Assembly: GCA_045595505.1 (NCBI GenBank)
Contig: JAZOAO010000027.1
Span: 84,717 to 148,716, forward strand
Direction of reading: 5' to 3'
Length of the DNA: 64,000 nucleotides
Origin: Acutalibacteraceae bacterium
Lineage (GTDB): Bacteria > Bacillota > Clostridia > Oscillospirales > Acutalibacteraceae
Positions 17,253 through 28,076 of the stretch are shown here, piece by piece (position 1 is the first letter of the stretch; each line of letters begins with the position of its first letter). The notes under the pieces were generated by a model. The model made no database searches and was not told where the DNA came from. It worked only from the letters and a program-made list of their open reading frames with translations. A program made the position numbers and the translations under genes.

Positions 17253-19877
17253 ATGAGCAAGAAATTCGTTTATTTGTTCAAAGAGGGCGACGCTTCGATG
17301 CGTGAGCTTCTCGGTGGTAAGGGTGCAAACCTTGCAGAAATGACCAACATCGGTCTTCCTGTTCCTCAGGGTTTCACAATCACAACTGAAGCTTGTACTC
17401 AGTACTATGAGGACGGCAGAAAAATCAACGATGATATCCAGGCACAGATTATGGAATACATCGACAAAATGGAAGAAATTGTTGGCAAGAAATTCGGCGA
17501 CAAAGAAAATCCCCTTCTCGTTTCTGTTCGTTCAGGTGCTCGTGCATCAATGCCCGGTATGATGGATACAATCCTTAACCTTGGTCTTAACGAAGATGTT
17601 GTTGAAGTTATGGCTGCAAAGTCAGGCAACGCTCGTTGGGCTTGGGACTGCTACAGAAGATTTATTCAGATGTATTCTGACGTTGTTATGGAAGTTGGTA
17701 AGAAATACTTCGAGCAGCTTATCGATGAAATGAAAGAAGCTAAAGGCGTAACTCAGGATATCGAGCTTACTGCTGAAGACCTCAAAGAGCTTGCAGGTCA
17801 GTTCAAAGCTGAATACAAATCAAAAATCGGTAAGGACTTCCCCTCAGATCCCAAAGAACAGCTTATGGGCGCTGTTGAGGCTGTTTTCCGTTCATGGGAC
17901 AACCCCCGTGCAAACGTTTACCGTCGTGACAACGATATTCCTTATTCATGGGGTACTGCTGTTAACGTTCAGGCTATGGCATTCGGTAATATGGGTGATG
18001 ATTGCGGTACAGGTGTTGCTTTCACTCGTGACCCCGCTACAGGTGAAAAAGGCCTTATGGGTGAATTCCTTGTAAATGCACAGGGTGAAGACGTTGTTGC
18101 CGGTGTTCGTACTCCTATGCCCATCGCTGAGATGGCTGAAAAATTCCCCGAGGCATTCGCAGAGTTTACAAAGGTTTGCGCAATCCTCGAAGATCATTAT
18201 AGAGATATGCAGGATATGGAGTTCACTGTTGAAGCAGGCAAGCTCTATATGCTCCAGACAAGAAACGGTAAGAGAACTGCAAAAGCTGCTCTTAAAATCG
18301 CTTGCGACCTCGTTGACGAAGGTATGATCGATGAAAAGAAAGCTGTTGCAATGATCGATCCCAGAAACCTTGACACTCTTCTCCATCCCCAGTTTGATGC
18401 TAAAGCTCTTAAAGCTGCAACTCCTGCAGGTAAAGGTCTTGGCGCATCTCCCGGTGCTGCTTGCGGTAAAGTAGTATTTACTGCTGAAGATGCAGAGGCT
18501 TGGAATGCTCGTGGCGAAAAGGTTGTTCTTGTTCGTCTTGAAACATCTCCCGAAGATATCACAGGTATGAAAGCATCTCAGGGTATTCTTACAGTTCGTG
18601 GCGGTATGACATCTCACGCAGCTGTTGTTGCTCGTGGTATGGGTACTTGCTGTGTATCCGGCTGTGGCGATATCAAAATGGACGAGGAAAACAAGAAATT
18701 TGAACTCGCCGGTAAAACATATGTTGAAGGCGACTACATCTCAATCGACGGTTCTACAGGTAACATCTACGACGGCATCATCCCCACAGTTGACGCTGAA
18801 ATCGCAGGTGAATTCGGCAGAATTATGGATTGGGCTGATAAATACAGAACTCTTAAAGTTCGTACAAATGCTGATACTCCCGCTGATGCTAAAAAAGCTC
18901 GCGAGCTCGGTGCAGAAGGTATCGGTCTCTGCCGTACAGAGCATATGTTCTTCGAGGCAGAAAGAATTGCTGCATTCCGCGAAATGATCTGTGCAGACAC
19001 AGTTGAGGAAAGAGAAGCAGCTCTTGATAAGATTCTTCCTTATCAGCAGGGCGACTTCGAAGCTCTCTATGAAGCTCTTGAAGGCAACCCCGTTACAATC
19101 CGTTTCCTTGATCCTCCGCTTCATGAGTTTGTTCCCACTGAAGAAGCTGACATCAAGCTCCTTGCAGATGCACAGGGCAAATCCGTTGAAGATATCAAAG
19201 CTATCATCGCTTCTCTTCACGAGTTTAACCCTATGATGGGTCACCGTGGCTGCCGTCTTGCAGTTACTTACCCCGAAATTGCTGCAATGCAGACAAAGGC
19301 TGTAATCCGCGCAGCTATCAATGTTCAGAAAGCACACGCTGATTGGAATATCGTTCCCGAAATTATGATTCCTCTTGTTGGCGACGTTAAGGAACTCAAG
19401 TTCGTTAAGAAGGTTGTTGTTGAAACTGCTGATGCTGAAATCGCAGCTGCAGGTGCAGACCTTAAATACGAAGTTGGTACAATGATCGAAATCCCCAGAG
19501 CTTGTATCACAGCTGACGAAGTTGCTAAAGAAGCTGACTTCTTCTGCTTCGGTACAAACGACCTTACTCAGATGACATACGGCTTCAGCCGTGATGATGC
19601 CGGTAAGTTCCTTACAGCTTACTATGACAGCAAAATCTTCGAGAACGATCCCTTTGCAAAGCTCGACCAGAACGGCGTTGGCGCTCTTATGGAAATGGCT
19701 GTTGAAAAAGGTAAAGCAAGTGGTAAGAACCTCCACTACGGTATCTGTGGTGAGCACGGCGGCGACCCCGTTTCCGTTGAATTCTGCCACAAGATTGGCC
19801 TTAACTACGTTTCTTGCTCACCCTTCCGCGTTCCGATCGCTCGCCTCGCAGCAGCTCAGGCTGCCATCAAGGGATGA
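17253..19877 (+). CDS. ppdK: Pyruvate, phosphate dikinase
   Basis: 874 aa with the PPDK phospho-histidine region GILTVRGGMTSHAAVVARGMG and a C-terminal PEP-utilising TIM barrel (GIGLCRTEHMFF, FFCFGTNDLTQ). Confidence 0.97.
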   Translation: MSKKFVYLFKEGDASMRELLGGKGANLAEMTNIGLPVPQGFTITTEACTQYYEDGRKINDDIQAQIMEYIDKMEEIVGKKFGDKENPLLVSVRSGARASMPGMMDTILNLGLNEDVVEVMAAKSGNARWAWDCYRRFIQMYSDVVMEVGKKYFEQLIDEMKEAKGVTQDIELTAEDLKELAGQFKAEYKSKIGKDFPSDPKEQLMGAVEAVFRSWDNPRANVYRRDNDIPYSWGTAVNVQAMAFGNMGDDCGTGVAFTRDPATGEKGLMGEFLVNAQGEDVVAGVRTPMPIAEMAEKFPEAFAEFTKVCAILEDHYRDMQDMEFTVEAGKLYMLQTRNGKRTAKAALKIACDLVDEGMIDEKKAVAMIDPRNLDTLLHPQFDAKALKAATPAGKGLGASPGAACGKVVFTAEDAEAWNARGEKVVLVRLETSPEDITGMKASQGILTVRGGMTSHAAVVARGMGTCCVSGCGDIKMDEENKKFELAGKTYVEGDYISIDGSTGNIYDGIIPTVDAEIAGEFGRIMDWADKYRTLKVRTNADTPADAKKARELGAEGIGLCRTEHMFFEAERIAAFREMICADTVEEREAALDKILPYQQGDFEALYEALEGNPVTIRFLDPPLHEFVPTEEADIKLLADAQGKSVEDIKAIIASLHEFNPMMGHRGCRLAVTYPEIAAMQTKAVIRAAINVQKAHADWNIVPEIMIPLVGDVKELKFVKKVVVETADAEIAAAGADLKYEVGTMIEIPRACITADEVAKEADFFCFGTNDLTQMTYGFSRDDAGKFLTAYYDSKIFENDPFAKLDQNGVGALMEMAVEKGKASGKNLHYGICGEHGGDPVSVEFCHKIGLNYVSCSPFRVPIARLAAAQAAIKG

Positions 19878-19969
19878 AGGAATTAAGCTGAACCCCAGTA
19901 ATATCAAGGGTTTCGCGACTTCTCTTACAAAAGTTGTAGCTGTATAACAGCTATTAAACTAGCAATCAG

Positions 19970-20002
19970 CTCCCCGTATTCGAAAGAATATGGGGAGTTT
20001 TT
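19970..20002 (+). terminator. Intrinsic terminator of ppdK
   Basis: 12-bp stem ctccccgtattc / gaatatggggag with one G-U pair, a gaaa loop, then tttttg. Confidence 0.85.
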
Positions 20003-20170
20003 GTAACAAAATAATAGGACAATTATGTTAGTGAAATGTTTTTTGAAATTTAAAGAGTAATATATGTGATTTAAAAAAACACTTGTATTTAGACGAAAAT
20101 ATGATATAATATAGAAGGGATAATGGTTGAAGAATATAATATAATTGAATGAACAAACTATGTATGTAGG

Positions 20171-20199
20171 TTGACATTTTATATTATATATGATATTAT
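20171..20199 (+). promoter_or_regulatory. Strong sigma-A type promoter of the island xre gene
   Basis: TTGACA (20171-20176), a 17-nt spacer, then TATTAT (20194-20199), 34 nt upstream of the xre ATG. A second candidate, ttgtat-N17-tataat, lies about 90 nt further upstream. Confidence 0.6.
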
Positions 20200-20232
20200 G
20201 TTATCCCGTTAATTGAAAAGGAGGTTTTTTGT

Positions 20233-20553
20233 ATGTCAGCCGAGTTGAGACGATTAGGCTCTAATATTGAAAAAGCTTCACGAAGTAACTACAAGCAGAT
20301 TGAAGAATTTGCAAACGATACTAATTTGTCTGTGAGAGATGTTCACCGTCTTTTTGAAGGCAGATTGATATTATCCCCTTTACAGCTTAAAGTGATTTCT
20401 GAGAAAGTCAATACACCGTTAAAGGAATTGCTTGATATTTCAGGTGAATATACTCTTGTTGAGTGTATGGGTCGCTTTAAAGATGAAAAAAATGAAGACA
20501 AGATTCTTGATTTGATTGATAATTATATTGATCTAGTTGAAGCTGTTTTTTGA
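20233..20553 (+). CDS. XRE-family helix-turn-helix regulator (106 aa)
   Basis: LGSNIEKASRSNYKQIEEFANDTNLSVRDVHRLFEGRLILSPLQLKVISEKVNTPLKELL follows the HTH_XRE/Cro-C1 pattern. RBS aaaggagg is present. It lies directly upstream of an ImmA/IrrE gene. Confidence 0.75.
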   Translation: MSAELRRLGSNIEKASRSNYKQIEEFANDTNLSVRDVHRLFEGRLILSPLQLKVISEKVNTPLKELLDISGEYTLVECMGRFKDEKNEDKILDLIDNYIDLVEAVF

Positions 20554-20560
20554 TTTTAGA

Positions 20561-20590
20561 GGGCATTTACAGGTTGTAAATGCCCTTTTT
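20561..20590 (+). terminator. Intrinsic terminator/attenuator between xre and immA
   Basis: Perfect 11-bp stem gggcatttaca / tgtaaatgccc (20561-20571 / 20575-20585), a 3-nt loop, then tttttc. It ends only 22 nt before the immA ATG and no promoter lies in between. Confidence 0.8.
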
Positions 20591-20612
20591 CTATAGGGAG
20601 TGATTTCAAATA

Positions 20613-21461
20613 ATGGATACAGAAGAGAAGAGAAAATATTTTGATGAAATAATTATCGATGTAGTTGATGAATGTCGGAAAGAAAACGATATTGTTAATG
20701 TCGTAATTCGCGATGATGTTTTTAAAATTTTAGAAAGTCATTGCAAAGTGATTTATTATCCACTTGAGAATGAGGATATAAATGGATTCCATGTAACTAG
20801 AACGGTATGTGGTGAAAGTTGTCATTTCGTATTTATTAATACTTGGAATACGCTGGAACGCCAAGTGTTTACTGCTGCTCATGAACTTGGGCATATTTGG
20901 AATGCTTATTCTAAGATTAAAGTAAAATTTCCAGAAATAGACGAATATGTGAGAATTACTGTTGATGAAATAACCCAAGAACCTCCGGAGGAGTTTGTTT
21001 CAAATCAATTTGCAGCACAACTATTATTACCTAAAGAGCAGTTTATTAGTGCTGTAAACGAGGCATTGGAGAAGTTGGATTATAATGGAAAAACTATTTC
21101 TAAGATGAATATGCTTAGATTAATAGCTAGTTTAATGGATACTTTTTTAGTAGACTACAAAGCTGTTACCAAGAGACTTTGCGAGATTGGGCGACTTAAA
21201 CCAGAAGTATATACTATTGTTAAAAATTATGAGTATGAATCTGATTTTGAAGAAACTTTTGATAGTATATTAAAACAGGGTGGTCACAAACGTTTGAACA
21301 AACGTACAGAAAATAATAGAAACATTTCTCATTTAACAGATGTTATTAGACAAGCAGAAAAACAAGGGTGTGTTTTGTCTTCTACAATAGAGAATTTAAA
21401 AACTGAATTTGAGATAACAACAACCGAACCTTCAGACCAGGATAGTGTGGTTGTGTTCTAA
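20613..21461 (+). CDS. ImmA/IrrE-family (COG2856, M78) zinc metallopeptidase
   Basis: The HExxH motif occurs in FTAAHELGHIW. The downstream block EEFVSNQFAAQLLLPKEQF is characteristic of ImmA/IrrE peptidases. Confidence 0.85.
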   Translation: MDTEEKRKYFDEIIIDVVDECRKENDIVNVVIRDDVFKILESHCKVIYYPLENEDINGFHVTRTVCGESCHFVFINTWNTLERQVFTAAHELGHIWNAYSKIKVKFPEIDEYVRITVDEITQEPPEEFVSNQFAAQLLLPKEQFISAVNEALEKLDYNGKTISKMNMLRLIASLMDTFLVDYKAVTKRLCEIGRLKPEVYTIVKNYEYESDFEETFDSILKQGGHKRLNKRTENNRNISHLTDVIRQAEKQGCVLSSTIENLKTEFEITTTEPSDQDSVVVF

Positions 21462-22083
21462 GGATGTGGTACCAGTGGGGAAAGTAGTTGTCGATACTGA
21501 TTTTCTCAATCATATTTTAAAAACTACTAATGGTGAAGATGTGATGCAAAAAATCGTTGACTTTTATGGATACGAATTAGTGATGCATCCGTGGGTATAT
21601 GAAAGAGAAATTAAGAACATAAATACAACAGTTGAAGCCTATGTGCAAAAAAATGTTGTTGTATTAAATTACACAGACTTTCTGAAAACTGAGGAGGATG
21701 AAATGCTTTATGATATTGTGTTTCAAGATCTTCATCGGGAAATGAATCGCGGTAAAACTGTTGATGAAAGTTACAGGTCATTTAAGACATATAATAAATC
21801 GGGAATGAATCTTGGTGAAATCCACTCTGTAATTTTGTCTAGGTTTTCTGGAATACCCTTGTTGTTATCTGACGATCATAATGCTAAAGAAATTGCTGCT
21901 AAAAAAATTAATGCTGATGGATATGAATTGAATGTTGAAAAATCCTTTGATATAATGTGTGATATAGTCACAAAAGATAAAAGTATTTTGGAACTAGAAG
22001 ATATTATTTCAGTAATAAGAAATCATAAACAAGAATATCAGAAAAATTATATAAGACAAATAAAGGAACTATATAAAAATTAA
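21445..22083 (+). CDS. PIN-like (DUF4411-type) putative nuclease
   Basis: Acidic residues occur in PIN-like spacing (VVVDTDFLNH, HPWVYEREI, NLGEIHSV, LLLSDDHNAKE). It overlaps or abuts the end of immA. The start is ambiguous: GTG at 21445, 21466 or 21475, the last about 10 nt after aagga. The domain call is by eye only. Confidence 0.5.
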   Translation: MWLCSKDVVPVGKVVVDTDFLNHILKTTNGEDVMQKIVDFYGYELVMHPWVYEREIKNINTTVEAYVQKNVVVLNYTDFLKTEEDEMLYDIVFQDLHREMNRGKTVDESYRSFKTYNKSGMNLGEIHSVILSRFSGIPLLLSDDHNAKEIAAKKINADGYELNVEKSFDIMCDIVTKDKSILELEDIISVIRNHKQEYQKNYIRQIKELYKN

Positions 22084-22215
22084 ACAATTATTGGCGGCGG
22101 AGTTGTTATAGAGTACATAATAAGATAGTTGTTCTTTTGAATGTAAATGAAGGGGAACAAATTTAAATATAAATCTAAAAGACTTTTAAATTCAATTATT
22201 CAGGAGAGAGCGAAA

Positions 22216-22752
22216 ATGATATTATCAGATAAAACATTAACTAAAATGCTTGAAGAAAAAACACTTGTTGTTGAACCGATTGAAAAGGAACAGATTCAAC
22301 CTGCAAGTATAGATATAAGATTAGGAAATACTTTCAGTATCGTAGAAGATACATCAACGGGCATTATAAATTTAGAAAATGAAATTAAATACAAAACAAT
22401 AACAAGTGACTCATACATATTATTGCCTAACCAATTTGTGTTAGCAACTACTATGGAATATTTCGATTTACCTGATGATTTGACTGCTTTTGTTGAGGGC
22501 AGAAGTTCTCTTGGTAGAATGGGATTGTTTATTCAAAATGCAGGTTGGGTTGACCCTGGATTCAAAGGTGAAATCACACTTGAACTTTACAATGCTAATC
22601 GTTGTGCAATTGAACTTAAAGCAGGTAGGAGAGTAGGGCAGCTTGTATTTGCAAAAATGGATGATACAGCGCTTAACCCATATAATGGTAAGTATCAAGG
22701 TCAGCGTGGTGCAACAGGTTCAAGAGTGTTTATGGATAAGGAAATTAAGTAA
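22216..22752 (+). CDS. dcd: dCTP deaminase (Dcd/dUTPase-fold)
   Basis: MILSDKTL...PASIDIRLGN...FVEGRSSLGRMGLFIQNAGWVDPGFKGEITLELYN...GQLVF...YNGKYQGQRG aligns along its length with canonical Dcd. Start placed at ATG 22216 behind RBS aggagag; the track ORF starts at 22147. Confidence 0.9.
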   Translation: MILSDKTLTKMLEEKTLVVEPIEKEQIQPASIDIRLGNTFSIVEDTSTGIINLENEIKYKTITSDSYILLPNQFVLATTMEYFDLPDDLTAFVEGRSSLGRMGLFIQNAGWVDPGFKGEITLELYNANRCAIELKAGRRVGQLVFAKMDDTALNPYNGKYQGQRGATGSRVFMDKEIK

Positions 22753-22780
22753 ATAAATTCCTACATTTCCTCGTTGCTCC

Positions 22781-22807
22781 ACAGGCAGCTATCAAGGACT
22801 AATTCTT
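22781..22807 (+). repeat. 27-nt 3'-UTR repeat, copy 1 (acaggcagctatcaaggactaattctt)
   Basis: Identical to 26477..26503. Each copy begins about 25-30 nt after a stop codon that sits in the context aagtaa (the dcd stop and the nuclease-like gene stop). Confidence 0.9.
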
Positions 22808-22866
22808 AAACTATCAAGGTGCAAACCTGATTAGCACGTAAAGTGTAAAACTAAATATCAAATTGA

Positions 22867-22901
22867 GACTTCGTTGGAGAAATCCGGCGGAGTCTTTTTT
22901 T
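22867..22901 (+). terminator. Intrinsic terminator after dcd (member of a 3-copy hairpin family)
   Basis: 12-bp stem gacttcgttgga / tccggcggagtc with three G-U pairs, a gaaa loop and 7 T. The apical ttgga-gaaa-tcc is shared with the hairpins at 23295 and 26527. Confidence 0.8.
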
Positions 22902-22906
22902 GTACC

Positions 22907-23275
22907 TTTTTAGACTTACAAAATCGGCAATTGCTCAGGCGTTATTCCAAGCCCCACCCACGCCCACCACAAGCGTTCCAAGTGCCTTCGAGCATAACTC
23001 AGGTAAACATCCTGAAAGTTTCAATCCCAGTAGAATCAAGCGATTACCGAGGTGAGAACGGGTGTAAAAGGGTCGCTCCGAAATCCGAAAAAATGTCTTT
23101 GTGCAGGCGTAAAGCGAATGTGAACAACCGCAGATACCCCTGATAATCCAAGCCTTAACTCTGGCAGGCGTGAAAGTTATTTGGGACTTTTTTGAGATTG
23201 TTTTGGTCTTTGTCCGTTGATAATCAAATTCGCACTTTGGTTGATAAATTGAATTGCACTTGAATATTATTCGGA
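22907..23275 (+). ncRNA. GC-rich non-coding unit; candidate structured RNA or decayed cassette (function unknown)
   Basis: It is bracketed by two terminators. My hand count gives 116 G+C in 240 nt (48%) for 22921-23160, versus 25-33% in two 60-nt lines counted in the next cassette. Neither strand has an ORF with an RBS. Short direct repeats are present: caggcgt three times, ccaagcc twice, caagcg twice. The strand is assumed from the flanking terminators. Confidence 0.3.
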
Positions 23276-23294
23276 AAAGCAAATAACTAAATGA

Positions 23295-23326
23295 ATCCCC
23301 TTGGAGAAATCCAAGGGGATCTTTTG
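23295..23326 (+). terminator. Intrinsic terminator (hairpin family copy 2)
   Basis: Perfect 11-bp stem atccccttgga / tccaaggggat, a gaaa loop, then cttttg. Confidence 0.85.
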
Positions 23327-23328
23327 TG

Positions 23329-23440
23329 TATAGTCCTTTTCATTGTACAACCAATTGGCTTCGTTAGTTGATTTTTAGTGTTTTGATTTTGTATAATGGC
23401 GATACTTTATAAAATGAAAGGGTTGTTAATATGCAGAACG
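23329..23440 (+). repeat. Promoter/leader module copy A (TTGTACAA palindrome, -35/-10, RBS, first three codons MQN)
   Basis: I count 6 mismatches and no indel over about 110 nt against 25295..25406. Contents: ttgtacaa 23343-23350, ccaattgg 23351-23358, TTGATT 23368-23373, an 18-nt spacer, TATAAT 23392-23397, RBS aaaggg, ATG 23431. Confidence 0.9.
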
Positions 23441-24192
23441 AAAATTTACTTTTTTCGTTAAAAACAAACAATGAATATGCCTATGCTTTTTATATTTACG
23501 AAGATGGCGCTCTTGTGAGTATTAAAAATTCGACAATAAAAATATTCTCACTTAAACCGAGCACATTAAAGAAATTCCGCTCTCAAATAAAAAAGTCTCA
23601 AAAAAGACTGAACGATGTACCCCAACAGTTAATCGGATATAAAGACGGGCTTATACTTTTTGTAAGTGAGGTGTGTTTCGGAGATAAAATCTTTTTTATT
23701 GATTACACCATAAATGATGCTGAAACACCTAACGAAAACTACCGCTGTACAATAAAGGCGTGCTTGGATGCACTTTTCCTTTTAGGAAAATTAGAGCCGC
23801 TTGTAATTAACGATACTGGAATTTATATGCTTGACCATTCACAAGACATTCACATCCAAATACAAACCACACGCCAACAGATATTAAATGAAACAGATGT
23901 GTATGTAAAATATTCATTGATAACATTTTTGATGACAATACTTCATTGGAGTAACTACGAAATATATTATTTAACCAGCGGCACACTCCCCATTTCCAAA
24001 AATGATATTTATAGTTTCTGTTTACTTGATGACGTTGTTCAAGATTGTTCTTATGACTCTATGCCGTTTAATGATTTTATGAATTTATTAATGAAAATAA
24101 ACAAAACCGCAAAAGTAAAATATCAGCACGCGTTACATAGCTGGTCATTAGATGCTGTGCGAGATTGTATACTTGCAAACAAAACAATATAG
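23431..24192 (+). CDS. Hypothetical protein (253 aa), island cassette 1
   Basis: Clean ORF driven by module copy A. I recognise no family. Confidence 0.6.
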   Translation: MQNENLLFSLKTNNEYAYAFYIYEDGALVSIKNSTIKIFSLKPSTLKKFRSQIKKSQKRLNDVPQQLIGYKDGLILFVSEVCFGDKIFFIDYTINDAETPNENYRCTIKACLDALFLLGKLEPLVINDTGIYMLDHSQDIHIQIQTTRQQILNETDVYVKYSLITFLMTILHWSNYEIYYLTSGTLPISKNDIYSFCLLDDVVQDCSYDSMPFNDFMNLLMKINKTAKVKYQHALHSWSLDAVRDCILANKTI

Positions 24193-24208
24193 CATCTTGA
24201 TATAAAAA

Positions 24209-24251
24209 TCCCTTTTATTGTACAACAAAGAGGTTTCGTTAGTTGATTTTT
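24209..24251 (+). repeat. Partial copy of the module (tcccttttattgtacaac...tttcgttagttgattttt)
   Basis: It shares the palindrome ttgtacaa (24218-24225) and the -35-containing gttagttgattttt segment with copies A and C, then diverges. A possible -10, taaaat, lies at about 24266. Confidence 0.75.
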
Positions 24252-24352
24252 GAAAATCCGTTTGCTAAAATGAAGTGGGAATTATACTTTGTGACAAAAT
24301 TTTATATTTCGTAGTTGTTAATACGAATACAATTTTAAAACGGGGGAGCAAT

Positions 24353-25273
24353 ATGTGGAAGATTACAAGAAAGCTTAGTTTTGCGATAGTGGACGAGGAA
24401 GAGTTTACTGATTTTCAAGAAGCTAAAATTCAATTTCGTAATGCTATTAAAGATAGGGTAGGCAGACATTTACCCAAATTTATAAAACAAATTGAAGGAT
24501 ATTGTAAGAAATATTACCCTTTAGGACATCCAGATGAATTTGATTTGTTGAAAGATTTGCTTTGTAATATTGTTACTAATCCTGAATATCCTGAAAACCC
24601 AGAAGTTTTTAATTTTTTGCGTTTTGAAGATGATAATGTTGAATTCTATATGGATGAAACTACAAAGGAAATAGTTGTTAGAGCAAAAAAAGAAGAACTC
24701 TCAGGAGAATTCCCATATATTGAAATAAATTCGATATTACTTGATGACCCAAAAGGTGAATATTATTTCTTTTTTACAAACAAATATAGAAATGAATATA
24801 CTAATCATTACTCAACCGATATTACGTTATATTGTGATGAGTTGAAAAATGATGAGATTAATTCTGATAACGAAGACCTTGAAGATGAATCCGAGGAACT
24901 GTATTCTGATTTGGTGATAATTGAGTCTTCATATGTGTTAGGAATAAGTATAAAAAAAGAACGTTTGTTGACTAAAGAAGAAATAGAAAAATATAAAAAA
25001 GAAATACCGAGAGGGGATGTATATGACCGAAGAGAGAATCTTTATTTTCCAAATAAAGCAGATATGCCAAAAAGTGAATTTAGGGAAATAGGGGTTTTGT
25101 GTTATACAGATGGTAGGGATATCTATTCCCGTGTGGCTCTTGATATAGAAAATGCAGATAAAACAAATTTAGTGGTTGGTGACGAATTTCTTTATGAGAC
25201 TTGTTTTTTTACTTTAATAGATAAAAACTTAGCTGTTTCAACCGATTATGAATGTAATTTTGAATTTGAATGA
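24353..25273 (+). CDS. Hypothetical acidic protein (306 aa), island cassette 2
   Basis: Start placed at ATG 24353 (MWKITRKL) behind RBS gggggag; the track ORF starts at 24275. The protein is Asp/Glu-rich (DNEDLEDESEELYSD). No family recognised. Confidence 0.6.
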   Translation: MWKITRKLSFAIVDEEEFTDFQEAKIQFRNAIKDRVGRHLPKFIKQIEGYCKKYYPLGHPDEFDLLKDLLCNIVTNPEYPENPEVFNFLRFEDDNVEFYMDETTKEIVVRAKKEELSGEFPYIEINSILLDDPKGEYYFFFTNKYRNEYTNHYSTDITLYCDELKNDEINSDNEDLEDESEELYSDLVIIESSYVLGISIKKERLLTKEEIEKYKKEIPRGDVYDRRENLYFPNKADMPKSEFREIGVLCYTDGRDIYSRVALDIENADKTNLVVGDEFLYETCFFTLIDKNLAVSTDYECNFEFE

Positions 25274-25294
25274 TTTTTTGTCTGTATAGGTTTA

Positions 25295-25406
25295 TATAGT
25301 CCCTTTTATTGTACAACCAAGTGGCTTCGTTAGTTGATTTTTGGTGTTTCGATTTTGTATAATAGCGATACTTTATAAAATGAAAGGGTTGTTAATATGC
25401 AGAATA
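25295..25406 (+). repeat. Promoter/leader module copy C
   Basis: Same architecture as copy A at a constant offset of 1966 nt: ttgtacaa 25309-25316, TTGATT 25334-25339, TATAAT 25358-25363, ATG 25397 (MQN...). Confidence 0.9.
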
Positions 25407-25942
25407 AAAATTATGTTGATTTTTCCACCAATATTTCCCCCACTGATTTTACCCTTGAAATGTATAAAAACACAGCAGAGGACGGCACGTTATATCTTAA
25501 TAATTGGTACGATGTGGATTGTGAAGACTGTCAGACCTATAACAGCTTTGTGGCAAATATTAAATGGTCGGCAGAAGATGTTGAACATGCAATATGTGAA
25601 TATAACAAACTTTATAAGGAGTTAGACGTTATTGCAGACCACCTTGATGAATTAGATGGTACATCCGCAACAGCACAAGAAGTATTACCCGATGAATTAG
25701 TAGCAAGCTATTGTATTTTTGTTGCACCTTTTGAAGCAACAAAACAGCAAGAATTAAATGCTGAGGTTATTGGCAGAGTGTCAGACGGTCCTTGTGGGTA
25801 TGGATTAATCCGCCACGCTCAACGCTTGTGCCGTTTGTTATCCCTTAACGCACCAGAGTTAGTAGTTCAAAACGAAGCAAGAATGTTATTTGCAAGTCTT
25901 GCAATTCATTCTTTCGGCGAAAAAATAGAAAAGGTAGATTGA
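25397..25942 (+). CDS. Hypothetical protein (181 aa), island cassette 3
   Basis: Clean ORF behind module copy C. It shares only its first three codons with cassette 1. No family recognised. Confidence 0.6.
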   Translation: MQNKNYVDFSTNISPTDFTLEMYKNTAEDGTLYLNNWYDVDCEDCQTYNSFVANIKWSAEDVEHAICEYNKLYKELDVIADHLDELDGTSATAQEVLPDELVASYCIFVAPFEATKQQELNAEVIGRVSDGPCGYGLIRHAQRLCRLLSLNAPELVVQNEARMLFASLAIHSFGEKIEKVD

Positions 25943-26011
25943 GCAGTAAAATAATGACTTTTAAAAATTTGTTTGCTATGATGTATTATATTATTAAAAT
26001 GGGGTGTTGTT

Positions 26012-26452
26012 ATGGGTGAAAATCGATTAAAAACAAATCCTGCAGGTGCAGCAGGTGAAAGTTATGTTCTTGCAGAGCTGTTGCGTCGTGGATATACAGC
26101 ATCGACCTTGTATAATTGTGCAAAAGATTATGATTTGCTTGCATACCATCCAGATAAGGATAAATATCTAAAGATTCAAGTTAAGACGAGTCAATCAAAA
26201 AGTAAAATTTGGAAATTGGGCGACAAACCGCCTTACTATGATAATGAGACATTTTACGTTTTTGTAACAATGGTTGGCGAAGAAATGCCTGAGTATTATA
26301 TCGTAGATAGCAAAAAAGTTTACGAAGTAGCAGAAAAAAGACATAATACACCTACTCGAAGCGGAACTGCAAGAACTTCGGGTAGAAAGTTTAAATTTGA
26401 AAAAGACGAAGAAAAACAATATAAAGATTGGAATATATTGTTGAGTAAGTAA
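26012..26452 (+). CDS. Putative PD-(D/E)xK-fold nuclease (146 aa), island cassette 4
   Basis: The order GAAGESYVLAELLRRGY ... DYDLLAY ... LKIQVKT resembles the helix / D / (E/Q)xK core of restriction-endonuclease-like and Hjc-like proteins. RBS ggggtg is present. The call is by motif only. Confidence 0.45.
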   Translation: MGENRLKTNPAGAAGESYVLAELLRRGYTASTLYNCAKDYDLLAYHPDKDKYLKIQVKTSQSKSKIWKLGDKPPYYDNETFYVFVTMVGEEMPEYYIVDSKKVYEVAEKRHNTPTRSGTARTSGRKFKFEKDEEKQYKDWNILLSK

Positions 26453-26476
26453 TTTCCCCACTTTGCTAACTGCTGG

Positions 26477-26503
26477 ACAGGCAGCTATCAAGGACTAATT
26501 CTT
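26477..26503 (+). repeat. 27-nt 3'-UTR repeat, copy 2
   Basis: Identical to 22781..22807. Here it is followed directly by aaaagcaaataactaa plus a terminator. In copy 1 the same continuation appears only after 23275. Confidence 0.9.
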
Positions 26504-26526
26504 TTAAAAAAGCAAATAACTAACGA

Positions 26527-26556
26527 ATCCCCTTGGAGCAATCCGAGGGGATTTTC
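26527..26556 (+). terminator. Intrinsic terminator (hairpin family copy 3), right end of the island
   Basis: 11-bp stem atccccttgga / tccgaggggat with one G-U pair, a gcaa loop, then ttttc. Confidence 0.8.
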
Positions 26557-26666
26557 TATGTGCAGATATTGAAAACAAAACATCTTTATTGTATAATGTG
26601 TCATGAAAGAGGTTTCATAATTTTAATATTGTTTTTTGTCGCAATTAAAATATTTTAAACAACAAG

Positions 26667-28076
26667 GTGGTTCTTTTGGCTGATAAAAACATTGACAAAA
26701 CCTTGCAACGAGAGAAAAAAGAGCTTGCAAGGCTGAATAAAGCTAAAAATCGCAATTCGGGAAGCAAATATTTCTTTGTTTTGCTTGTTTTGATTGCTAT
26801 TGTTAATATTCTTGATGAGGTTACAAGCAACCTGACTGTTACTGTGCAGTCATCTTTTGTAACAGAATTTTTTGTTAATAATCCCTTTATGGGGAAATAT
26901 TATACCTACGAGGATGGGCTTGCTTTTCATTCAAGTATAGGTGTGTTTACCTATGTTCTGGGCATATTCACTCCATTTTATAAGGCTCTTGCAGATAAAT
27001 GGGGCAGAAAACCACTTTTTGTCCTTTCAACCTTGGGAATGGCAACTGGACTTCTGGTTATTCATTTGTCATCAAGCTACATAATGTTTCTTGTGGGTTT
27101 TGCAATTATCAGCTTTTTTATGGGGCACGATATTCAGATTATCTATATTCTTGAAGAAGCACCCAATAAGCACAGAGCAAAGATTTACAGTTTTCTTAAA
27201 AGCTTTGGTATTTTAGGCGTTGTTCTGATTCCTACGCTCCGCGATATTCTTATGGGGGACGATGCAACAAAATGGCGAGAAATTTTTCTTGTTCCTGCTC
27301 TTATCGGCTTTGTTGCAGTTGGTCTTGTTCTTGTTTTCGCAAAGGACACTAAAGTGTTTATCAGCGAAAGAATAGAGTATCTTTCCCGACCACTTGAGCA
27401 GAGAGAAGCGGAAAAAGCCCTCAAAAAGCAACAAAAGGAAGCCCAGAGAAATCAGTCAGGTGTATTTAATGGCGTAAAATATATTTTTTCAAACAAAGAT
27501 ACCAAAATGCTCATTATTGCTCACATCATTTTTGATGCGGCAATGCCTGCGATTGCATTGTATTTTGAATCATCAATGCATCGGGCAGGAATGAGCACCG
27601 CAAATATAACAAAAGCATTGTTTATGGTGCCTGTAATTTATGCTACAATAACATTTCTTTCGGGTTTTATTGCCGATAAGCTGGGAAGAAAAGTGACTGT
27701 AACACTTTTCTCAATAATTTGTATTATAGGCTATGTTCTTTTTGTGGCAGGAATTCTGAATAATTGGAACCCGTATCTTATCGGTTCTCTTGCAGGTCTT
27801 TATCAAGGGTCTTATTGGATTGGCAGGGACTATATGAATGTTATGATGACTGAAAAAGTTCCGACAGATATCAGAGCATCGGTTGTTGGTGCGGAAGGTC
27901 TTTTAGTTATAATAGGTCTTGCAGTTGGTTATCTGACAACGATTATCGGAATGATTGCTATGCCTATATGGTGGGCTTGTCTTATGGTTTCCATTCCAAC
28001 AGTTTCTGTTGCGGCGATTATATTTGTTCTTAAGGTTAAAGAAACAAAAGGCGCGAGCTTAGATGAAATAGAATAA
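26667..28076 (+). CDS. MFS transporter (about 12 TM)
   Basis: Two hydrophobic six-helix halves are separated by a charged loop (EQREAEKALKKQQKEAQR). The MFS loop motif LADKWGRKP lies between TM2 and TM3. The start codon is uncertain (GTG 26667 or TTG 26676). Confidence 0.75.
   Translation: MVLLADKNIDKTLQREKKELARLNKAKNRNSGSKYFFVLLVLIAIVNILDEVTSNLTVTVQSSFVTEFFVNNPFMGKYYTYEDGLAFHSSIGVFTYVLGIFTPFYKALADKWGRKPLFVLSTLGMATGLLVIHLSSSYIMFLVGFAIISFFMGHDIQIIYILEEAPNKHRAKIYSFLKSFGILGVVLIPTLRDILMGDDATKWREIFLVPALIGFVAVGLVLVFAKDTKVFISERIEYLSRPLEQREAEKALKKQQKEAQRNQSGVFNGVKYIFSNKDTKMLIIAHIIFDAAMPAIALYFESSMHRAGMSTANITKALFMVPVIYATITFLSGFIADKLGRKVTVTLFSIICIIGYVLFVAGILNNWNPYLIGSLAGLYQGSYWIGRDYMNVMMTEKVPTDIRASVVGAEGLLVIIGLAVGYLTTIIGMIAMPIWWACLMVSIPTVSVAAIIFVLKVKETKGASLDEIE

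Follow-up and report, generated by a model that had tools for sequence, protein, structure and literature searches.

What is the G+C-rich stretch that lies beside the dCTP deaminase gene dcd in a variable island downstream of ppdK? A first-pass annotation had placed it at 22907-23275 of the window (the whole 64,000-nucleotide stretch of DNA analysed here) and read it as a structured RNA, possibly a regulator or antitoxin for the neighbouring dcd or PIN-like genes. The island measures ~6.8 kb and contains, in order:

17253-19877: ppdK, which bounds the island on one side
XRE-like gene, ImmA/IrrE peptidase gene and gene for a 212-aa protein, together the PADLOC candidate system PDC-M69 A/B/C
22216-22752: dcd, encoding a dCTP deaminase of 178 aa (PF22769 DCD, 1.3e-49; TIGR02274 dCTP_deam, 205 bits)
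the non-coding unit that is the subject here
four cassette genes 3' of the unit, encoding 253, 332, 181 and 146 aa
26667-28076: MFS transporter gene, which bounds the island on the other side

The island has the form of an accretion-type array, in which copies of the ppdK 3' end stand between cassettes that lack an integrase, and no recombinase, transposase or integrase was found among the island open reading frames (ORFs) and 20 other ORFs at 1-38 kb of the window. The segment 22745-22807 is repeated at 26441-26503, and the segment 23275-23329, consisting of AAAAGCAAATAACTAA and a hairpin, is repeated at 26508-26561, a duplicate closing the island that had already been recognized in the first-pass annotation. 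The repeated flank is a displaced ppdK 3' end (its product ending in ..AAQAAIKG and the stop) followed by a ppdK-type 3' untranslated region (UTR) with its terminator. Exact-protein look-ups with ppdK and with the 212-aa, 253-aa and 181-aa proteins returned no record, and the look-up with ImmA led to a single short contig that breaks off within dcd. G+C content at 22921-23160 is 48.3%, in agreement with the 48% counted previously by hand; the island (19878-26666) has 32.8% and the window as a whole 37.1%.

The unit has no coding potential. Two mutually overlapping ORFs, of 89 aa on the plus strand and 115 aa on the minus strand, cross the region and could be taken to favour a decayed protein-coding fragment, but neither has a Pfam match and neither is kept in two homologous copies of the unit described below (L012 and L013). 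Stop-free six-frame segments, concatenated and searched against 5.8 billion proteins, yielded no homologue, and tblastx against related loci and the window aligned the flanks only. Mismatches relative to homologues fall 26/23/15 and 52/44/41 by codon position, that is, with no 3-base periodicity, and indels, including 1-nt ones in the conserved part, disrupt the frames. Small conserved peptides were also considered and dropped, as start codons and frames vary among copies. Models of rRNA, tRNA, tmRNA and introns gave no match, and ARAGORN reported no tRNA or tmRNA. The absence of a credible gene, asserted from the start, was thus borne out, and we consider it scarcely credible that the unit is a decayed protein-coding fragment or a known structural RNA.

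Alignment with homologues gives the unit an extent of ~22812-23266 (~455 bp), further to the left than first drawn, with the first hairpin and the two left 22-bp repeats included; the nhmmer envelope is 22803-23272. Identity to homologues is 67-95% within conserved segments and drops to background level beyond the unit ends, where conservation ceases ~5 bp or less beyond the compound inverted ends. Related-strain contigs, obtained via the 146-aa protein, contain the site uninterrupted: the ppdK-end copy and the terminator part adjoin each other in L002 (2015-2136), L006 (162-283) and L007 (26-120). Because both flank pieces are contiguous in these three contigs, ~450 bp of the window is an insert, in line with the earlier proposal of an insertion into the shared 3' UTR. 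The unit is a discrete entity that is present in some related strains and absent in others. Its parts and their surroundings, in window coordinates, are:

22782-22811, plus strand: left host flank, the displaced ppdK 3' end (CAGGCAGCTATCAAGGACTAA) and the first 3' UTR bases, with the unit inserted directly after
22816-22837, plus strand: site L1 (outer left), degenerate in the window (AAGGTGC-N9-TAGCAC)
22841-22861, plus strand: site L2, AAGTGTAAAACTAAATATCAA, an exact AAGTGY-N9-TATCAA that begins 24-25 nt after L1
22865-22901, plus strand: predicted terminator T1, a 12-14 bp G+C-rich stem then T7, part of the unit
22925-23050, plus strand: left core, C-rich and G-poor, in which the blocks CCCACGCCCACCACAAG and CCCAGTAGAATCAAGCG are invariant and CAAGY motifs are repeated
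23051-23215, plus strand: middle and right core, variable; kept in the window, L012 and L017, ~50% identical in L013
23217-23237, minus strand: site R1, the 22-bp repeat in inverted form, reading AAGTGCGAATTTGATTATCAA on the minus strand
23241-23266, minus strand: site R2 (outer right), AAGTGCAATTCAATTTATCAA on the minus strand, plus the terminal TGAATA
23267-23329, plus strand: right host flank, the remaining ppdK-type 3' UTR and the T2 hairpin (23295-23320), outside the unit

The left host flank matches true ppdK ends (L002 640-700; window 19850-19877), and the right host flank, with its ppdK-type 3' UTR and T2, is absent beside the unit in L012, L013 and L017.

The ends are built from a 22-bp repeat, AAGTGY-N9-TATCAA (site sequence AAGTGCAAACGCGCTTATCAA), of which two copies stand in direct orientation on the left and two inverted on the right, with a spacing of 24 nt inside each pair; the inverted repeats enclose ~350 bp. 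Exact matches to AAGTGY-N9-TATCAA number three in the 64-kb window (22841, 23217 and 23241), all within the unit, against a chance expectation of ~0.015 by our own arithmetic. Site L1 is perfect (AAGTGC-N9-TATCAA) in L012, L013, L016 and L017, and the 2+2 sites with their 24-nt phasing are retained in all four full copies (window, L012, L013 and L017), so that the end-repeat architecture is conserved at the level of sequence. Other readings of these motifs were set aside: only AAGTGCG (7 nt) resembles the nick motif of a MOBQ-type oriT, whose hairpin would be on the wrong side, and neither DnaA boxes nor an IHF site in TATCAA fit their consensus.

Directly inside the left sites, a terminator scan detected the T1 hairpin, a strong intrinsic terminator of the plus strand, in the window, L012 and L013. 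In five copies, a U6-7 tract comes after the hairpin in plus-strand RNA, in which its energy is -20 to -21 kcal/mol; as minus-strand RNA it has -9 to -16 kcal/mol with internal loops, the latter form being weaker because of U.G pairs; T1 is accordingly predicted to be functional only as plus-strand RNA. The stem is retained although the window copy is only 67-69% identical to the others here, and the terminator is conserved. The T1 loop in the window, GGAGAAATCC, is the same as the loop of the host terminator T2, and some of the divergence of T1 in the window may therefore stem from gene conversion. Of the claim that two terminators bracket the stretch, the hairpins themselves stand (22865-22896 and 23295-23320), but the first is not the dcd terminator, because it is part of the unit and travels along with it in homologues. 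Likewise, the supposed cassette-start motif ttgtacct dissolves on comparison: TTGTACC is the tail of T1 and reads TTGTGCC or TTGTTTC in homologues.

The left core contains 33% C and 18% G on the plus strand, is 78-88% identical across all copy pairs and includes invariant 17-nt blocks. CAAG[CT] occurs five times on the core plus strand versus 0.9 expected (p ~0.001), at positions most of which are shared by homologues. The heptamer CAGGCGT, annotated as a triple repeat, does occur three times in the window copy, yet homologues have 1, 0 and 1 copies and a 7-mer is found three times in 3.6% of shuffles; we treat it as chance rather than as a functional motif. Tandem Repeats Finder reported no arrays at 22700-23400. 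At the right end, an outward-facing promoter-like site (window 23241-23270) takes its -35 from TTGATA of R2 and has its -10 at the unit boundary, with an equivalent position in L012 and L013; the same scan gave nothing promoter-like in the interval from T1 to the core. The unit has 42% G+C in four copies as against 33-38% in the hosts, which argues that the enrichment has been maintained and not merely imported.

Copies elsewhere were sought with a gapped pattern, based on the end architecture, scanned over 185,579 species representatives (one genome per species). The scan gave two real matches, one in each metagenome-assembled genome (MAG): L012, an Acutalibacteraceae MAG with 85% identity over 459 nt, and L013, an uncultured Clostridia MAG with 77% identity over the left half. 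Two further matches, L014 and L015, were rejected as chance, one being a tandem repeat in coding sequence and the other an isolated pair of sites. A look-up with the protein adjoining the L013 copy added L017, a full copy with 80% identity to the window, and the partial copies L016 and L018, and homologous copies thus exist outside the window (L012, L013 and L017), as the first-pass annotation had proposed to check. The homologues come from gut or rumen Clostridia, the L016-L018 group consisting of metagenome contigs. The L017 contig terminates precisely at the right end of the unit (...GTGAATA), and the L016 and L018 contigs break off within it. Such contig ends inside or at a unit are behaviour typical of repeated or polymorphic DNA.

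These copies place the unit in at least two unrelated gene contexts. The L012 copy also lies in a ppdK-downstream island, where it has a 254-aa gene on one side, a PHP gene on the other and a different right flank, and the L013, L016, L017 and L018 copies lie 3' of a DUF5697-DUF6100-430-aa gene cluster; ppdK and PHP are the sole proteins common to the compared loci. In every context the upstream gene is co-oriented with the unit and ends just before it, and orientation is identical in all four full copies. L017 shares the context of L013, but its right half is like that of the window copy, and this mismatch makes the family a mosaic. One copy of the unit is present in the window. Pattern scans of viral contigs, and scans of JGI metagenome contigs with core patterns, gave no further relatives or autonomous partner, and the genome contigs scanned likewise contained no autonomous partner that shares the 22-bp sites; all these contig scans required exact pattern matching, and diverged relatives would therefore be missed. 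In 'distant' mode, blastn with the unit and with the L013 copy plus its downstream flank found no match in phage and plasmid collections, and the first 23 aa of the ORF that follows the L013 copy matched neither plasmids by tblastn nor the protein collection by word matching.

The same contexts bear on the proposal of a dedicated RNA antitoxin or regulator, DifV-like or type III, for the adjacent dcd or PIN-like defence genes. The unit is non-coding and conserved, and it adjoins a candidate defence cluster (PDC-M69 A/B/C and the dCTP deaminase), but it is never paired with dcd in the other loci: L001 has an identical dcd and no unit, its sequence diverging right after the ppdK-end copy, and L012, L013 and L017 have the unit and lack dcd and the PDC-M69 genes. 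Since the two do not co-occur in any of these four loci, no linkage exists between the unit and either dcd or the PDC-M69 genes. It also lies 3' of dcd with its own terminator at its start, and hence is not co-transcribed with dcd; it has no tandem repeats, and the enzyme encoded by dcd here is of another type than DcdV. We consider an RNA antitoxin specific for dcd unlikely, and regulation dedicated to any of these neighbours, as first suggested, very improbable.

A relic of a site-specific integrating element is another reading that the island invites. The 2+2 sites would then have served an integrase as arm-type sites, in what was once an attP or in attL+attR, and would be left over in the array at the ppdK 3' end, much as in a minimal cis-mobilizable element. 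The surrounding accretion-type array with its repeated ppdK 3' ends, and a unit start 14-33 nt beyond the ppdK-end copy in the window and L012, are consistent with such an origin. Against it, the ppdK-end direct repeat is found on the left only, in the window as in L012, with none to the right, no ppdK sequence surrounds the L013 and L017 copies, and no integrase was identified among the ORFs tested in L012 and L013 any more than in the island and the 20 other window ORFs. We consider this origin doubtful.

A further reading is a cwpV-like switch of transcription: the segment enclosed by the left and right repeats would be invertible, turned round by a recombinase whose gene lies at another locus. 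The present orientation would block upstream read-through by means of T1 and the C-rich stretch, and the flipped one would not. Inverted repeats around ~350 bp, an orientation-specific intrinsic terminator at the left-repeat junction and a co-oriented gene ending just upstream in every context all match that arrangement. However, the four full copies have only one orientation among them, and each end consists of two direct sites without palindromic symmetry, not of a single inverted repeat of 20-30 bp. A second terminator directly follows the unit in the window and L012, so that flipping would not release the downstream genes there. Invertons, moreover, are not normally strain-variable in presence, nor do they occur in unrelated loci. 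A switch of this type therefore seems improbable to us.

The structured-RNA interpretation of the G+C-rich stretch was not supported. Rfam 15 at gathering thresholds gave no match over the whole window, and in the more permissive E-value mode (22600-23500, 19800-27000, L012, L013 and L017) only terminator-like sub-threshold matches appeared, so that the Rfam scan envisaged earlier assigned the unit to no family. Folding of an extended window stretch gave z-scores of -0.98 (plus strand) and +0.39 (minus strand), and folding of the core against dinucleotide shuffles gave +0.05 to +1.29 in eight of eight tests (four homologues, both strands). The T1 hairpin is the clear exception to this poor folding, and the left core is predicted to be unstructured. 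RNAalifold covariation over four sequences amounted to +0.19 (plus strand) and -1.69 (minus strand) kcal/mol. Pair counts were above controls, but only for structures predicted from these same four sequences; double changes lie mainly in the poorly aligned L013 half, and the kept pairs are mostly invariant or G.U-tolerant. A long-range helix on the minus strand has one invariant G/U-rich arm and tolerates any transition, and a few local hairpins still pair in the divergent L013 copy. Outside T1, the evidence for structured RNA from covariation in the alignment leans negative, and we caution that G+C enrichment alone is here no indicator of such an RNA.

A non-coding RNA gene of a different sort may still be considered, namely one for a largely unstructured RNA, C-rich from the plus strand or G-rich from the minus strand, that acts for example as a CAAGY sponge or guide, with the 22-bp sites as operators. 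Retention of the G+C enrichment in all four copies, the invariant 17-nt blocks of the left core, the single-strand CAAG[CT] enrichment at mostly recurring positions, the few hairpins that persist in L013 and a terminator on each side are all compatible with it. The lack of an Rfam match, the uniformly positive core z-scores and the weak covariation count against it, as do the lack of a promoter-like site from T1 to the core, the sole consistent one facing outward, and the loss of conservation in the right half of L013. We judge such a gene unlikely, if less so than an integration relic or a switch, and the unit may yet yield an RNA product of some kind.

The reading that we prefer, tentatively and at rather less than even confidence, is that the unit is a rare non-autonomous mobile DNA module with protein-binding ends. 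A horizontally moving, miniature-transposon-like module of ~455 bp would have inserted itself into a displaced ppdK 3' UTR copy, and the 22-bp sites would be putative binding sites for a transposase or recombinase acting in trans. T1 and the C-rich unstructured stretch would stop transcription arriving from the upstream gene, and R2 would supply an outward-facing -35; transposition of the unit and the role of its core are both what we infer from these patterns. Sharp boundaries, presence and absence in related strains and occurrence in unrelated contexts all point this way, as do the multiple phased sites at each end, inverted between the ends in every full copy, and the outward -35 within the terminal repeat at an equivalent place in three copies. 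The window and L012 copies both lie in a ppdK island but differ in right flank and neighbours. The ends, T1 and the left core are kept in all copies and the right and middle core falls to ~50% in L013; L017 makes the family a mosaic; contigs stop at the unit end (L017) or inside it (L016 and L018), and the unit is non-coding.

Several observations weigh against a mobile module. ATAGT flanks the L013 copy on both sides, a possible target-site duplication, but none is visible at the window or L012 copy, and the L006 empty site is too diverged to fix the junction. The copies found are single per locus and genome, the scans described above gave no autonomous partner, and no transposase or recombinase is among the tested window ORFs. 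Were the unit a passive deletion derivative, there would be no explanation for a left core that equals the ends in conservation. The window and L012 copies may share one insertion, which leaves only two independent contexts.

If the unit is mobile, a compact element with its own terminator and outward promoter-like site can rewire adjacent expression, here in the defence and cassette hotspot downstream of ppdK, and the four phased 22-bp sites predict a DNA-binding partner, a transposase or recombinase, in Oscillospirales. A bolder version, to which we give little credence, about as little as to an integration relic, is that it is a new sort of mobile non-coding insulator and re-starter cassette or, alternatively, an unstructured protein-sponging RNA moving among Clostridia. 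As an insulator, its terminator and C-rich Rho-loading-like stretch would halt incoming transcription, its one-strand CAAGY array and four 22-bp sites would be displayed to a protein dedicated to them that binds DNA or RNA, and a regulated outward promoter would re-initiate transcription. The unit is neither a detectably structured RNA nor a dcd partner, and is a so far unclassified conserved non-coding module.

Type III antitoxin RNAs consist of tandem direct repeats upstream of an endoribonuclease toxin gene, whereas the unit has no tandem repeats and the 253-aa ORF downstream of it has no match in Pfam or PADLOC. DcdV of Vibrio cholerae combines P-loop-kinase-like and CDA-family deoxycytidylate deaminase domains, and its RNA inhibitor DifV, of 152-174 nt, is encoded immediately 5' of dcdV, the two being co-transcribed (10.1101/2021.03.31.437871). 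The unit resembles DifV in being non-coding DNA that, within a defence-type island, adjoins a gene for a deoxycytidine-nucleotide deaminase. It differs in lying 3' of dcd with its own terminator, in adjoining a canonical dCTP deaminase gene whose product has a single dUTPase-fold domain, and in having no co-occurrence with dcd elsewhere; the comparison fails every defining feature tested.

Tandem arrays at the 3' ends of target genes are known for ICE, IME and CIME elements (PMC5704250). The surrounding island is like these cis-mobilizable and accretion arrays, with ppdK 3'-end copies between integrase-less cassettes; the unit itself is unlike them, as it lacks flanking ppdK-end direct repeats and also occurs away from ppdK. 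For the C. difficile cwpV switch, an orientation-specific terminator layout has been proposed and the recombinase is encoded elsewhere (PMC2784873). Both systems are from Clostridia and have inverted repeats round a few hundred non-coding bp, a terminator at the left-repeat junction and no adjacent recombinase. Each end of the unit has two repeats, in direct orientation and without palindromic symmetry, the four full copies share one orientation, the unit is strain-variable and found in unrelated loci, and a second terminator follows it in two contexts, all of which are unlike cwpV.

Non-autonomous miniature transposons (bacterial MITE-like elements), derived from transposons with more than one transposase-binding site at each end, also bear comparison; no sequence similarity of the unit to any known element was found in the phage and plasmid blastn and other searches here. 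The unit differs from MITE-like elements in having no demonstrable target duplication, partner or transposase, in being apparently single-copy, and in its built-in terminator and a G+C-rich core that is as conserved as the ends. It is like them in being small and non-coding, with sharp compound inverted ends, a variable interior, presence or absence in strains and an outward -35 in the terminal repeat. The kind is a known one, a small mobile or mobile-like cassette; the architecture, with its built-in terminator and conserved C-rich core, is not one that we could assign to a described family. Transposons of the Mu, Tn7, Tn552/Tn5053 and IS21 types have several transposase-binding sites per end, and the unit is like the Mu, Tn7, Tn552 and IS21 types in its two direct ~22-bp sites per end, inverted between the ends and held in fixed phasing.

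The variable region downstream of ppdK, reaching to the MFS transporter gene (window 19878-26666), is an accretion-type array, as are its counterparts in three related-strain contigs (L002, L006 and L007) and in L012, an Acutalibacteraceae metagenome-assembled genome (MAG) locus. Related strains vary in cassette content, no integrase was found in the window island, and copies of the ppdK 3' end stand between its cassettes, each with a ppdK-type terminator:

Window 22782-22802: copy of the ppdK 3' end, with ppdK-type terminator
Window 26478-26498: copy of the ppdK 3' end, with ppdK-type terminator

In related strains (L002 3943-5138), the interval separating the 146-aa PD-(D/E)XK gene from the MFS gene holds a 315-aa PHP-domain gene, which is absent from the window (26453-26666).

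Each cassette gene in the window island is also preceded by a common promoter and 5' untranslated region:

Window 23329-23446: cassette 5' module
Window 24209-24252: cassette 5' module
Window 25295-25412: cassette 5' module

Copies of 118 nt share 93% identity and take in the ribosome-binding site and first codons (MQN), and the module contains the palindrome TTGTACAA; it seems to be a handle for cassette swapping, serving recombination or regulation.

Within the non-coding unit inserted in this island, the terminator (window 22865-22896) has a loop and upper stem, TTGGAGAAATCC, that agree with those of the host ppdK-type terminators (23295-23320 and 26527-26553), whereas homologous units carry TTGGATTCAGTTCC at this position. 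This pattern suggests that the two terminators, 430 bp from each other, have undergone local gene conversion. The core of the unit carries five plus-strand CAAG[CT] motifs (window 22948-23154; p ~0.001), the majority of whose positions are found again in homologues. This motif also has sequence in common with the 22-bp sites at the unit's ends, overlapping their first half (CAAGTGC).

The unit copy of L013, an uncultured Clostridia MAG locus, is directly followed by about seven GTTTTTGGGA repeats (L013 1-235, minus strand), one pair of which forms a perfect palindrome. An ORF start, MQKKNYKGRCTKKNLSKCKEVCR, comes after the repeats and is truncated by the contig end; no homologue of it was found by tblastn against plasmids or by word match in the protein collection. 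The repeats and ORF start may belong to a regulated gene or mark where another mobile element ends.

Two adjoining, opposite-strand matches to Gut-1 RNA (RF01706) lie in the ppdK island of L012 (4676-4849), both sub-threshold (46 and 41 bits versus a gathering score of 50), and have no counterpart in the window island. An XRE-like gene, an ImmA peptidase gene and the gene for a 212-aa protein match the PADLOC candidate system PDC-M69 A/B/C. These are followed in the window by a gene for a canonical dUTPase-fold dCTP deaminase (all four within 20233-22752), and an identical dcd is preceded by another gene, with a 467-aa product, in L001, a contig lacking the unit; the deaminase behind the PDC-M69 genes may be an added effector.
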